From a phage: 64,000 nt of DNA. The position numbers were made by a program, and so were the translations under genes. The first letter of the stretch is position 1. Every line of letters starts with the position of its first letter. The stretch lies in the NCBI GenBank assembly GCA_012401045.1, contig GCA_012401045.1_4704.1, one strand, 5' to 3'. The notes under the pieces are model-generated. The model saw only the letters and a program-made list of their open reading frames with translations. It was not told the DNA's origin and did no database searches. Shown piece after piece: positions 15,524 to 18,791 of the stretch.

Positions 15524-16057
15524 TTAAGCTCCTTTCTGTTTTACGGACGATGTTAACCAGGACGATCTTACTGTGAAACCCTCAGACTCGTAGAACGCCT
15601 GGGCTTCATCATTGTCGGCACGAACATCCAGGCCGATAGAATGCCCACCGCACTGGTAAGCGATGTTACGTGCCTCATTCATCAAGGCGTGGCCGATCCC
15701 ACGTCCGCGATATTCGGGTTTTACAACAATCGATGTAACGTCATAAATGCCCATATGGCTCTCTGTATTCACTTCCAAGAGACCTACTGGTATCGAAGCG
15801 ATAGCATCGATCATAACGACCAACATTGCAGTGTCTGGTAAACGCTTTTCTAATTCTAAGGCATCGTACTCGCGTTTTAAATCGGGGATATTCTCAAACA
15901 TAAACGTGGTAGCCCATGCCTCTGATTCTACATCGTCGAGAATACGGTACAGCTCACGAATCTGTCGTTTATGTGGGTAAAGGTGTGGATCGGCCGCCGT
16001 TGAGGCGATAACGCAATAGAACGGCCGTTCATTAATAACTACTGTTTTGATGCTCAT
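15524..16057 (-). CDS. GNAT family N-acetyltransferase
   Basis: Motif A VKPEYRGRGIGHALM (R-x-x-G-x-G) and overall GNAT-like layout. Confidence 0.65.
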   Translation of the reverse strand: MSIKTVVINERPFYCVIASTAADPHLYPHKRQIRELYRILDDVESEAWATTFMFENIPDLKREYDALELEKRLPDTAMLVVMIDAIASIPVGLLEVNTESHMGIYDVTSIVVKPEYRGRGIGHALMNEARNIAYQCGGHSIGLDVRADNDEAQAFYESEGFTVRSSWLTSSVKQKGA

Positions 16058-16560
16058 GCTAAAATTCCCTCATTACCTAACAGTCGATTACGATGACGTC
16101 GGTACAATTGACAAAGTGTTGTGATTTGATAATGTTTGTTGTAACGTACCTCGATACGTTTTTGCACCTCTTTCCATGGAAGTTTATCGTATTGCCGATA
16201 ACGATGGATTTCATTTAACATACGAAGACGAGTAGGATCGGTGTTCTTTATCGTCGTGAGCTTCACACGTTGGTATCCACGCTGTAGTCCCGATTCGGAA
16301 TACGTGACGTCAAACTCATCTTGAATGATGGTAATGATCTCCCGCCACCGACGGTTCTCGCCATCACGTAAATGGACAACCCGCGATAAGATATCGTTCC
16401 GATTACGATGACTCAGTTTAATGTTAAGCATTGAAGCAATCGCGCTAATTGCTCTCTGACTCCGTCCTAACGCTTCACCGATTTCTTTCGATGTCATGAC
16501 GCCCGCGTTTCGGCGTATGAATGCGATTTCGGTTGTTGTGTATTCTTTACCTGCTGCCAT
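16054..16560 (-). CDS. Myb/SANT-like HTH repeat protein (array member 6)
   Basis: Paralogous to five upstream genes; HTH-like EIGEALGRSQRAISAI and a W-containing third repeat. Confidence 0.5.
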   Translation of the reverse strand: MAAGKEYTTTEIAFIRRNAGVMTSKEIGEALGRSQRAISAIASMLNIKLSHRNRNDILSRVVHLRDGENRRWREIITIIQDEFDVTYSESGLQRGYQRVKLTTIKNTDPTRLRMLNEIHRYRQYDKLPWKEVQKRIEVRYNKHYQITTLCQLYRRHRNRLLGNEGILA

Positions 16561-17024
16561 TTCTTACCACGTGTGTTATAATAGTAACGCTGACAAAGAT
16601 GTGTGTGACGATACTCCCGTTTGAACTCGACGCTGATAATGCGAGCAACTTCTCTCCAGTTAACCCCTTTACGTCGAAGTGCTGTAATACGGTCTGAAAT
16701 TTTGCACCATTCATCTGGGTCGTATCGTCGTAGCTTGAGTCGTCGTATTACGGAGGCGACACTCGCTCTCGATCGGCCAAGATGATTTGACAGTTGTTTA
16801 ACCGAGTATCTGTGGATATTGTCGCGAATATAGGAAATCTCGTTGTTCGTATATGCCTCATTGGTTCTCGACGAAGGGAACAGCATATACAACTTATTCT
16901 TAATCGCGCTTTCTGTGCGTTGAAATACAGAAGCCAGCTCACTAACCGGTGGTCTGGGTATCTGGTCCGCGTAATTCTCGAGGCGTGAGAGTTCCTCATC
17001 TGTCCAGCGACGGTATTTGCGCAC
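16494..17024 (-). CDS. Myb/SANT-like HTH repeat protein (array member 5)
   Basis: Track ORF 16494..17126 trimmed to a GTG start at 17024 preceded by AAAGGAG RBS; RWTDEELSRL repeat. Confidence 0.45.
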   Translation of the reverse strand: MRKYRRWTDEELSRLENYADQIPRPPVSELASVFQRTESAIKNKLYMLFPSSRTNEAYTNNEISYIRDNIHRYSVKQLSNHLGRSRASVASVIRRLKLRRYDPDEWCKISDRITALRRKGVNWREVARIISVEFKREYRHTHLCQRYYYNTRGKKWQQVKNTQQPKSHSYAETRAS

Positions 17025-17499
17025 GGGCAACTCCTTTGTTTTTCGTGTAGTAACACCAACGTTGATACAACGCATGTTTATTCGTTGTAATCCCAAATTT
17101 AACAACAACGTCGTATGTGATAACATTCCAATTTTGGGTGACGTTAAGTCGTTCCGCGATAAACGCGATAATCGCTTCCCGTTCTTGCTTTGTTAACGCA
17201 CGACGAATTCCATTAAGCCGTATAAACTGACGAACCGAGTCATACGAGCGGTTTAAATCGTACGCGATCTCACGCAGCGATTTTTGTTTGATTACGGACT
17301 TGATGTACGCGCGTTCTTCTTCCGTATAAGGTCGATGCTTTTGGCGTTGACGTATTCCCAAACGTCCCAGACGCGCGTCGATGCTGGCGCGTGTTCGTCC
17401 TGTCCGTTGTGCGATTTCATCAATCGTCATCGATGTGTTTAAGTACAGATGCGTGACGTCTTTCAGCTCGTCGTCACGCCACGGTTGAGATCGTCCCAT
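16996..17499 (-). CDS. Myb/SANT-like HTH repeat protein (array member 4)
   Basis: WRDDELKDV...IDEIAQRTGRTRASIDARL and YTEEERAYI repeats. Confidence 0.5.
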   Translation of the reverse strand: MGRSQPWRDDELKDVTHLYLNTSMTIDEIAQRTGRTRASIDARLGRLGIRQRQKHRPYTEEERAYIKSVIKQKSLREIAYDLNRSYDSVRQFIRLNGIRRALTKQEREAIIAFIAERLNVTQNWNVITYDVVVKFGITTNKHALYQRWCYYTKNKGVARAQIPSLDR

Positions 17500-17977
17500 C
17501 TTGTATCCCTCTTTTCTTTCTATGATGCCACCAACGCTGATAGACAGCTTGCTTCGTACGTGTTATACCGAAATGCGCATTAACCCGTTCAGCAATGTGG
17601 TGCCAATCCTGCGTTTCTTCCAACAATGTATCAACGAAGGCTACGAAGATCTTAGTATCAGCCTCGCTTAACCGCTTAAAACCATGACGGTGTGCTATCG
17701 TTTTAATACTGTTTGGATCCCTGTTTAAATCGCGTGCGAGCTGTTTATAACTTTTGTGTTTGCAGTGTGCTCTGATATATTCCAACTCATCGACGCTGAA
17801 ACGTTTATGTGGTTTACGACGTTCAACATTTAAGTATACCAACCTCGATTTAATTGCACCGTACGTTGTTTCCATGATTTCTGCGATTTCACGGATTTTT
17901 AATTTCGGGTGACGATAGTACAATTCCAGCAACTGTTCATCATCCTTACGATTCCATCGTCGTACTGGAGGTTTCAC
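17474..17977 (-). CDS. Myb/SANT-like HTH repeat protein (array member 3)
   Basis: Three repeats with spaced aromatic residues (W..DDEQLLELY, FSVDELEYI, DWHHIA...YQRWW). Confidence 0.5.
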   Translation of the reverse strand: MKPPVRRWNRKDDEQLLELYYRHPKLKIREIAEIMETTYGAIKSRLVYLNVERRKPHKRFSVDELEYIRAHCKHKSYKQLARDLNRDPNSIKTIAHRHGFKRLSEADTKIFVAFVDTLLEETQDWHHIAERVNAHFGITRTKQAVYQRWWHHRKKRGIQDGTISTVA

Positions 17978-17990
17978 AACGAGATTTCTC

Positions 17991-18458
17991 CTATTCTGCG
18001 CGTTTTAATGCTTGAGTGTAGTAGAGGCTATGAACACCGCTTAACGTGTAATGGGTGTTAAATTCGTTATTGATAATATTCCGTATTCTCTCCCAGGTGT
18101 TATTCTCTTTTCTAAGGGCGTGTATTCGATAATAAATCATCTCTCGACGTTGTGCTTTGCACGCAACAATACCGTAACGGTAGCAGAGTTTAGCGATTGC
18201 ATCCACGCTACGGTTGAACATCGCTGCAGCTTCTTTTACGCTGTGCGTCTTGAGATAATCGGCTAACATCACGCGTTCTTCGAAACAACAATAGCGATGA
18301 CGCGACGTGAGTTTCCAGCGCTTGCGATTACGGTTAATTCGACCTTGAACAGAGCCTTCTGTTCGGTCAAGCCGTGCCGCAATCTCTTGCATCGGGATAC
18401 CGTTTCGGTACAGAGTAATCAATATCGCGTCTTCTTCGGGTGTCCAGTCCTTGACCAT
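17991..18458 (-). CDS. Myb/SANT-like HTH repeat protein (array member 2)
   Basis: WTPEEDAILITLYRNGIPMQEIAARLDRTEGSVQGRINRNRKRW closely matches the Myb repeat pattern. Confidence 0.55.
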   Translation of the reverse strand: MVKDWTPEEDAILITLYRNGIPMQEIAARLDRTEGSVQGRINRNRKRWKLTSRHRYCCFEERVMLADYLKTHSVKEAAAMFNRSVDAIAKLCYRYGIVACKAQRREMIYYRIHALRKENNTWERIRNIINNEFNTHYTLSGVHSLYYTQALKRAE

Positions 18459-18470
18459 AGTGCCACCCCA

Positions 18471-18791
18471 TCAACGTCTTACTTTAAGCGGTATTCTGTT
18501 TCGAAAACAATAACACCGGATGGCGTGTACGCTACGATTCATTATTTCAGCAATTTCATTTAGGGCGTGCTTCTTCGCAAGCATAGCAACCCGGGTTCTT
18601 TCTTCTGGTGTGTAAACTCCCCCACGAGGAGGTAGGTCACCTCGTCGTTTCCTCAACTTGAGGAAACGTGCGCGAATAGAACACGGCGTCCGATCCATGC
18701 AACGCGCTATTTCTTTATAGCTCGCTTTTGGTGATGTGCTAAGAATAAGCAGCAACGCTTCATCCTCTTTATCCGTCCAACGTTTACCCAT
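18471..18791 (-). CDS. Myb/SANT-like HTH repeat protein (array member 1)
   Basis: [10 protein letters not shown]...[19 protein letters not shown] and YTPEERTRV...[16 protein letters not shown] repeats. Confidence 0.5.

Follow-up and report, generated by a model that had tools for sequence, protein, structure and literature searches.

Positions 16054-18791 of a 64,000-nucleotide phage contig (GCA_012401045.1_4704.1; hereafter the window, meaning the whole stretch of DNA that was analyzed) carry six paralogous open reading frames (ORFs) in a row on the minus strand, named A to F. The locus raises the question of what a phage does with six adjacent genes for Myb-like helix-turn-helix (HTH) proteins. 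At positions 15500-21000, the window and Escherichia phage vB_EcoM_Goslar (Goslarvirus) have 94.5% nucleotide identity. Goslar, whose genome measures 237 kb, is a jumbo phage that infects E. coli and builds a phage nucleus (PMC9891218). Genes A to F correspond to Goslar gp119 down to gp114. They sit between the counterparts of gp121, an NAD-dependent DNA ligase gene, and gp113, a GNAT acetyltransferase gene. Our analysis established the gene structure, paralogy, fold class and charge of the array, purifying selection on its genes, the transcription class of its Goslar orthologues and the exchange of a cassette between related phages. The reading that we favor, with a little more confidence than doubt, is a set of early DNA-binding regulators. 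The genes and the cassette are listed here, with R1, R2, R3 and R3' denoting types of three-helix domain.

Gene A, 18471-18791, minus strand: 106 residues, ATG start, ribosome-binding site (RBS) TAAGGAGA; orthologue of Goslar gp119; R1-R2 only.
Gene B, 17991-18458, minus strand: 155 residues, ATG start; gp118; R1-R2-R3; holds the peptide WTPEEDAILITLYRNGIPMQEIAARLDRTEGSVQGRINRNRKRW quoted in an earlier, sequence-only reading of this DNA.
Gene C, 17474-17977, minus strand: 167 residues, GTG start, RBS TAGGAGA; gp117; R1-R2-R3.
Gene D, 16996-17499, minus strand: 167 residues, ATG start; gp116; R1-R2-R3.
Gene E, 16494-17024, minus strand: 176 residues, GTG start; gp115; R1-R2-R3 and a 23-residue tail overlapping gene F.
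Gene F, 16054-16560, minus strand: 168 residues, ATG start; gp114 (147 residues in the Goslar annotation); R2-R3-R3'.
Cassette A-E, 16545-18740, minus strand: hypervariable and exchangeable; the stretch that does not align between the relative L003 and the window.

Comparison of the six proteins by BLASTP revealed identities of ~20-37% over most of their length (~25-93 bits) for all pairs but two: A-F did not align, and C-F fell short of significance. All six proteins matched PHROG 323 ("transcriptional regulator, D5-like") with E-values from 6.4e-10 to 1.4e-18 (9e-17 for gene A, 1e-17 for gene B at profile positions 94-244, and 1e-18 for gene E). The pairwise similarity and the common PHROG 323 match show that the paralogy is real and, judged from these alignments, it is far beyond chance. 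The six consecutive tandem paralogues proposed in the sequence-only reading are thus present at 16054-18791, with sizes of 106-176 residues in place of the 106-177 that it gave.

Domain anatomy was derived from the family alignment together with AlphaFold2 models of D and F. The D model (pLDDT, the predicted confidence score, 82.5) placed the helices of R1 at residues 9-21, 26-33 and 37-46, those of R2 at 60-69, 75-82 and 86-95, and those of R3 at 104-118, 124-135 and 141-155. In the F model (mean pLDDT 79.5), nine helices made up three bundles, with an additional short helix at the C terminus; the first bundle was of the R2 type and the other two were of the R3 type. Profile alignment with hhalign identified R1 and R2 as true repeats (probability 97.7%, E = 2e-12); R3, the longer third three-helix domain, did not resemble either of them significantly in profile comparisons. 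The orthologues of gene A in L003, L008, L011 and L012 have 152-157 residues and keep R3, so the gene in the window and in Goslar is a C-terminally truncated copy. All six proteins were strongly basic (isoelectric point 9.7-10.6, net charge +11 to +19), with flanking enzymes at an isoelectric point of ~5. The invariant residues were W7 in R1 and W124 and F135 in R3, the remaining Myb-pattern positions being aliphatic. The sequence-only reading had described two or three Myb-like HTH repeats per protein with spaced aromatic residues. It correctly took them for Myb-like HTH repeat proteins, and R1 and R2 are repeats as it held; R3, however, is a distinct domain, F departs from the common layout as R2-R3-R3', and of the Myb-pattern tryptophans only the first is conserved in R1 (W7).

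Searches against domain collections placed the proteins among HTH families. In Pfam, A exceeded the cut-offs of both Myb_DNA-bind_6 (PF13921, 32.5 bits) and Myb_DNA-binding (PF00249, 32.1 bits), and C passed PF13921 through its R3 domain (26.7 bits, residues 105-151); B, D, E and F missed the Myb cut-offs. Sigma70_r4_2 (cut-off 25.7) was passed by B (34.4 bits), C (28.5 bits) and D (27.4 bits), and HTH_23 and HTH_28 by B. Gene B also gave sub-threshold scores for GcrA (PF07750; 14.5 bits, E = 0.048, versus a cut-off of 26.9) and Terminase_5 (17.6 bits versus 20.3). No NCBIfam family passed its cut-off for the array proteins; the sigma models, weak ECF-sigma matches included, reached 16-22 bits against cut-offs of 42.9-323. 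PADLOC returned no meaningful defence or anti-defence match, and published work on Avs5/JADA proved to be unrelated. The top matches of a profile search of the PDB were Cbp2 (2LVS, E = 5.7e-9 across R1-R2) and c-Myb (3e-5), and the best structural match was the DNA-binding domain of GcrA (5YIU); structural and sequence neighbors together comprised GcrA, Tc3 transposase, c-Myb and Cbp2. A literature search found no experimental paper on PHROG 323 or a D5-like transcriptional regulator. Two identities that the sequence-only reading had set against its own interpretation were rejected by these profile searches. A terminase small subunit was represented by a sub-threshold match only, among neighbors encoding a ligase, an acetyltransferase and methyltransferases and in an early expression class. 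An ordinary sigma factor would combine regions 2 and 4, and only a region-4-like HTH was found, with NCBIfam scores far below the cut-offs.

Seven lineages were compared: the window, Goslar, L003, L008, L009, L011 and L012. In all seven the array lay between the ligase and GNAT genes in a fixed order of 5 or 6 genes, with gene A missing in L009 and gene B missing in L003. Amino acid identity across lineages was 83-100% for ligase and GNAT (85-94% and 83-97%, respectively, across the relatives) and 87-99% for gene F, the conserved member outside the swapped cassette. Genes C, D and E fell into two deep types with 37-56% identity between types; the corresponding identity for B was 68-72%, and A occurred in four forms (47-58%). 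Type I comprised the window, Goslar, L011 and L008, and type II comprised L012, L009 and L003. Comparison of L009 with L011 revealed ~99-100% nucleotide identity on both sides, across the ligase and gp120-like genes on one and from where F begins onward through GNAT on the other; the C, D and E proteins of the same two genomes were 50%, 37% and 46% identical, with sharp junctions in the sliding identity profile. When L003 was aligned to the window at the nucleotide level, the sole large non-aligning stretch in 20 kb was 16545-18740, covering genes A to E. The near-identical flanks, the diverged C, D and E, the sharp junctions and the L003 gap identify A to E as an exchangeable unit. We conclude that A to E behave as a single recombination cassette, of which Goslar-like phages have two deeply diverged alleles, and this result is new here.

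The ratio of nonsynonymous to synonymous substitution rates (dN/dS) in unsaturated pairs was 0.07-0.23 for B to F and 0.14-0.34 for A. These values indicate purifying selection and led us to reject gene-wide positive selection. The term "diversifying", which the sequence-only reading had applied to the family, therefore fails for selection on the genes as a whole, but it does capture the swapping of A-E cassettes that have diverged deeply, which takes place between phages that are otherwise nearly identical. Within orthogroups, the turn and helix 3 were kept over both alleles at ~40-90% identity, compared with 20-77% in helix 1, and helix 1 and the linkers diverged more than the turn and helix 3. 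Orthogroup motifs were RTEGSVQGR in B, RDPNS in C, SYDSVRQF in D and SAIKNK in E. Between paralogues the same turn and helix 3 segments were only 20-25% identical. This pattern suggests approximately six maintained DNA specificities.

Three neighboring genes also varied. Goslar gp120 (235 residues, L001 6297-7004; no Pfam domain) is an extra gene between ligase and array in Goslar, L009 and L011. The gp120-like gene is not present in the window, L003, L008 or L012, and its presence or absence at the 18784-18791 junction marks an indel that abuts the variable cassette. A D12-class N6-adenine DNA methyltransferase gene lies a few genes upstream of the ligase (window 22126-22953, minus strand; Pfam E = 1e-59). 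It is a presence/absence polymorphism, absent from Goslar, L009 and L012 and split into two ORFs in L007 and L010. Downstream of GNAT, a 142-residue protein (15094-15522, minus strand) also has two allelic types, with 92-99% identity among the window, Goslar, L003, L009 and L011 and 60-65% to L008 and L012. It is encoded by another variable gene, independent of the HTH cassette and distributed differently across the lineages.

Expression was assessed with published Goslar RNA-seq data (raw per-gene reads at 30 min post infection; bioRxiv 10.1101/2023.09.20.558163, Supplementary Table 2). The genes gp114-gp119 had 182-478 raw reads each, no higher than neighboring genes, and the ORFs of the array, whose expression the sequence-only reading had left to be checked, are thus transcribed in their Goslar orthologues. 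In log2 units, ChmA knockdown changed gp114-gp119 by -0.16 to +0.46 relative to control, compared with -3 to -7 for late genes; the ligase and the entire gp106-gp159 block had ratios like those of gp114-gp119. The ChmA-knockdown transcriptome equals the early (5-20 min post infection) transcriptome, produced from the EPI (early phage infection) vesicle (bioRxiv 10.1101/2023.09.20.558163). Since the array transcripts are insensitive to the knockdown, the orthologues are transcribed early and independently of the phage nucleus, a class assigned from knockdown ratios at 30 min post infection.

The flanks of the array and the nearest upstream gap are as follows.

NAD-dependent DNA ligase, 18784-20853, minus strand: upstream flank; Pfam DNA_ligase_aden, OB, ZBD, HHH and BRCT; conserved locus anchor.
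GNAT acetyltransferase, 15524-16057, minus strand: downstream flank; Pfam Acetyltransf_1, E = 3e-15; conserved locus anchor.
Intergenic gap, 21162-21241, minus strand: nearest gap upstream; a GC-rich hairpin, then TTATGCTG (21189-21182).

Between this gap and position 13053 there were no gaps of more than 50 bp, so the array lies inside a single co-directional block of ~8 kb. The ligase stop overlaps the A start by 8 nucleotides; further overlaps join C and D (26 nucleotides), D and E (29 nucleotides), E and F (67 nucleotides) and F and GNAT (4 nucleotides), and gaps of 12 and 13 nucleotides separate A from B and B from C. Gene E is the member for which the sequence-only reading had described a GTG start with an AAAGGAG RBS inside the preceding gene, and this was borne out: the RBS lies at 17037-17031 within gene D, 6 nucleotides upstream of the GTG, and the Goslar annotation has the identical start. 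Relatives carry ATG at the position matching the GTG starts of C (L011, L009 and L012) and E (L008 and L011). Gene F probably has a true form of 168 residues, which relatives conserve, and the GenBank/RefSeq start of Goslar gp114 (147 residues; L001 3555-3998; the affected part of the window is 16497-16560) probably cuts the gene short. In the AlphaFold2 model of the 168-residue form, the first HTH has its helix 1 upstream of M22; leucine replaces M22 in P0208 (a 70%-identical F homologue); and in the type II relatives gene E ends in an ATGA overlap with the start codon of the long form of F. Goslar gp119 already bears the RefSeq label "SANT/Myb domain-containing protein"; gp114-gp118 can be given better names than "hypothetical protein", and the RefSeq start of gp114 seems wrong.

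A scan of window positions 12-24 kb for sigma-70 promoters and terminators gave counts at or below shuffle expectation. A GC-rich hairpin with TTTATGC(T/C)G directly after it was identified in the intergenic regions 8155-8247, 21162-21241, 39747-39812, 52566-52682 (minus strand) and 43849-43947 (plus strand), and TTATGCTG occurred 6 times in the window versus 1.5 expected. The hairpin and TTTATGC(T/C)G elements are possibly terminator-promoter units. The more specific reading, with a phiKZ-type late promoter at TTATGCTG coming after a terminator, is doubtful because the Goslar RNA-seq data put the block downstream of 21189 in the early class. An exact 17-mer, CACGGCTATATTACTTA, was also found twice (11527-11543 and 41604-41620, both minus strand), in intergenic positions upstream of minus-strand genes; we take it to resemble the AT-rich phiKZ early (virion RNA polymerase) promoter core TATATTAC.

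Taken together, these data lead us to propose, as somewhat the better bet, that the six genes encode early, site-specific DNA-binding regulators, with a slight lean to targets in the phage genome over the host chromosome. The proteins are small, strongly basic and probably monomeric. By analogy with characterized relatives we infer DNA binding, recognition of an extended site by a monomer and a regulatory role. Each protein is built of two or three three-helix HTH domains of a Myb/homeodomain/GcrA-like kind, connected by short basic linkers, and the third helix of each domain would enter the major groove, as in c-Myb R2R3, the bipartite domain of Tc3, the Pax paired domain and Cbp1/Cbp2. Successive major-groove contacts, with basic linkers between them, could allow a single polypeptide to read an extended asymmetric site. 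The distinct recognition helices and the orthogroup signatures suggest that the array would supply about six different DNA specificities. An ~8-kb block free of gaps above 50 bp and a nucleus-independent gp106-gp159 run point to a set that would act early, as site-specific regulators of transcription or of other DNA transactions.

Several observations weigh against this proposal. Three-helix HTH/SANT-type domains can bind protein or RNA rather than DNA. A Foldseek search of the PDB with the whole D model gave no match at E <= 1e-3, a null that we attribute to the flexible linkage of the domains. No candidate binding site emerged in the 64-kb window: no canonical k-mer of k = 10-14 was enriched, the maximum copy number of any 10-mer was 5, no 14-mer occurred at least 3 times, and Tandem Repeats Finder detected no tandem or CRISPR-like repeats. 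The swapping of 37-50%-identical alleles in near-isogenic genomes is awkward for regulators of many phage sites unless specificity is kept. Finally, the array is restricted to the Goslar-like lineage and so cannot belong to a conserved Chimalliviridae transcription programme.

A possible, though rather unlikely, alternative is host takeover or competitor exclusion, in which the multi-HTH readers target the E. coli chromosome, prophages, defence loci or co-infecting relatives. Foreign DNA would be silenced or marked in the cytoplasm ahead of phage-nucleus formation, and frequency-dependent selection, driven by hosts or competitors, would maintain the two alleles. The early, nucleus-independent class would place synthesis of the proteins at a stage when the cytoplasm exposes host DNA alone, and a lineage-specific, accessory array with a hypervariable cassette in a ~90-100% conserved backbone is typical of conflict genes; selection across these genes is nevertheless purifying, and the recognition helices are their better conserved parts and not diversifying. 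Host DNA is mostly broken down by 60 min post infection in Goslar (PMC9891218). The proteins did not match the known defence or anti-defence models in PADLOC, however, and six separate site-specific proteins seem many for shut-off.

The sharp junctions of the block replacement could alternatively reflect a selfish cassette of DNA-binding modules orphaned from homing endonucleases or mobile nucleases, spreading with little function for the phage, and we regard this as very unlikely. The HTH parts do match the HNH-annotated PHROG 1891, 8446 and 7545, and neighbors in BFVD include phage endonucleases with the R1-R2 module. No nuclease domain was found, however, in the six genes, the flanks or Goslar gp120, gene order was fixed in 7/7 lineages with 5 or 6 genes each, dN/dS was 0.07-0.34, and the genes are co-transcribed with early genes of an essential type. 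A homing endonuclease with an HTH was rejected as an identity for the array proteins, the PHROG HNH matches being confined to the HTH.

It is equally hard to credit that the proteins are non-specific, architectural or nucleoid-coating basic proteins that compact phage or host DNA. Their high isoelectric point, positive charge and several paralogues would fit such a role, and so would the analogy with Cbp1, which is reported to form chromatin-like structures on DNA (PMC10883916). The modest reads (180-480 per gene, not above neighbors) do not fit it, and the retention of orthogroup recognition-helix signatures over deep alleles points to specific contacts. A sigma-like or RNA polymerase-associated role, with a region-4-like HTH that recruits or redirects the host sigma-70 holoenzyme or a phage RNA polymerase or acts as a decoy of region 4, is the least plausible of all. 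The Sigma70_r4_2 matches of B, C and D, the weak ECF-sigma matches and the structural match to GcrA (an RNA polymerase-associated cell-cycle regulator) would fit it, but the sigma matches reflect generic HTH similarity over two stretches, sigma region 2 is lacking, the NCBIfam sigma scores (16-22 bits) are far below 43-323, and Chimalliviridae transcribe with their own sigma-independent multisubunit RNA polymerases. Each of these last three explanations thus has very little probability: there is no nuclease domain, there is no sigma region 2, and expression is modest while the recognition-helix signatures are specific.

To place the array among known proteins, 1.84 billion representative proteins were searched exhaustively with a hidden Markov model (HMM) of the R1-R2 unit. 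This search revealed 13,108 relatives at E <= 1e-3 and 2,402 at E <= 1e-10. The top matches were mostly 300-900 residues long with 3-11 copies of the unit and also matched PHROG 323. Metagenomic proteins such as P0031 (786 residues), P0038 and P0070 consist nearly entirely of ~47-residue WTxEED...EIAxxLGRSxxSVxxRxxxLGL repeats. In BFVD the module occurred in many phage proteins, including endonucleases, "GcrA", the Vibrio phage "D5 protein" and transcriptional regulators. A P2-like Salmonella prophage encodes P0028 (187 residues), a PHROG 323 match with an apparent R1-R2-R3 layout, between a D12 methyltransferase gene and gpA. Full-length matches to the compact ~160-residue form came almost only from 240-248 kb contigs or fragments of Goslar-like phages, and among cultured phages the array was found in Goslar alone. 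In a tblastn search of 50,697 phage records, D matched Goslar only, and outside Goslar B gave weak R1-level matches in N4-like Klebsiella phages. The array therefore consists of Myb-like HTH proteins of a widespread phage module, a domain type that is already known and partly annotated. The statement in the sequence-only reading that such repeats are unusual in phage was wrong in view of the R1-R2 relatives, the many BFVD phage proteins, PHROG 323 and a prior report of a jumbo-phage expansion (PMC7824862); what is restricted is the compact form and the tandem array.

An early, lineage-specific set of six predicted DNA readers provides candidates for phage regulation or host takeover. A further and speculative possibility, to which we assign a low probability, is that A to E form a modular specificity cassette of five monomeric multi-HTH readers deployed before the nucleus forms, or are the first gene-specific transcription factors to work with the sigma-independent RNA polymerases of Chimalliviridae; we know of no gene-specific transcription factor of nucleus-forming (Chimalliviridae) phages and found none in the literature. 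If a specificity cassette were confirmed, two alleles would be kept by frequency-dependent selection in the Goslar-like population, the cassette would decide which host, prophage or competitor DNA is recognized or which strains are compatible in co-infection, and the system would be a lytic jumbo-phage analogue of the lambdoid heteroimmune repressor-operator modules. The swap of five genes between near-identical phages is in any case a natural experiment on the evolution of DNA-recognition modules in lytic phages. Cassette polymorphism and early expression make the array a reasonable experimental target; the spatial logic of early Chimalliviridae infection is under active study, and Goslar is tractable, with CRISPRi-ART, RNA-seq and live imaging in place.

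Among known systems, Bacillus phage G-type jumbo phages have a lineage-specific expansion of Myb-type (RsfA-like) HTH proteins, proposed to be phage-specific transcription factors (Iyer et al. 2021, PMC7824862). The likeness is that of a jumbo phage with an expanded Myb-type HTH set. In contrast, Goslar-like phages are phiKZ-like, form a nucleus and have their own RNA polymerases, and a tandem array with cassette exchange is not described in PMC7824862.

The comparison with Caulobacter GcrA (5YIU) extends to phage "GcrA cell cycle regulator" proteins among the BFVD neighbors; it is confined to the fold of the DNA-binding domain, as the array proteins are without the GcrA C-terminal domain. A D12 adenine methyltransferase gene lies a few genes upstream of the array, and such a gene also stands beside the homologue in the P2-like prophage. 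The latter adjacency was observed in L015/L016, where the D12 gene adjoins the Myb-like homologue. A link between the methyltransferase and the GcrA-like fold was rejected, because the presence of the methyltransferase tracks neither the array nor the cassette type, and the reading of methylated DNA by the array proteins is pure conjecture.

The best solved sequence relative of the array is Cbp2 (two repeats; 2LVS), with Cbp1 as its three-repeat counterpart. These are small monomeric archaeal proteins of 2-3 imperfect HTH repeats with basic linkers that bind ~25-bp CRISPR DNA repeats (PMC3597662). The NCBIfam HTH_Cbp1 model (NF040595) scored 18.2 bits for C and 16.4 bits for D against a cut-off of 140, so the 2LVS match indicates distant relatedness only. 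The systems also differ in that the Cbp1/Cbp2 host is crenarchaeal and the array belongs to a bacterial virus, in the R3 domain of the array, and in the CRISPR DNA repeats, since no CRISPR-like array or tandem repeat was found in the 64-kb window.

Likeness to Myb R1R2R3 and SANT proteins lies in tandem ~50-residue three-helix repeats with a conserved N-terminal tryptophan (WTxEED), and the array has the three-helix bundle with helix 3 as the predicted recognition helix. Unlike Myb, R1 and R2 of the array keep only the first of the three spaced tryptophans, and the linkers are longer and basic, closer to those of Cbp2 or Pax. The nearest family is PHROG 323, whose function name is an annotation label that presumably refers to D5 of the T5-like phages; the matches of B and E span profile positions ~81-251, R3 included. 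Typical relatives in PHROG 323 are single chains of 300-900 residues with 3-11 R1-R2 units, or are nuclease fusions. In contrast, the array spreads the same module across six separate tandem genes of ~160 residues each.

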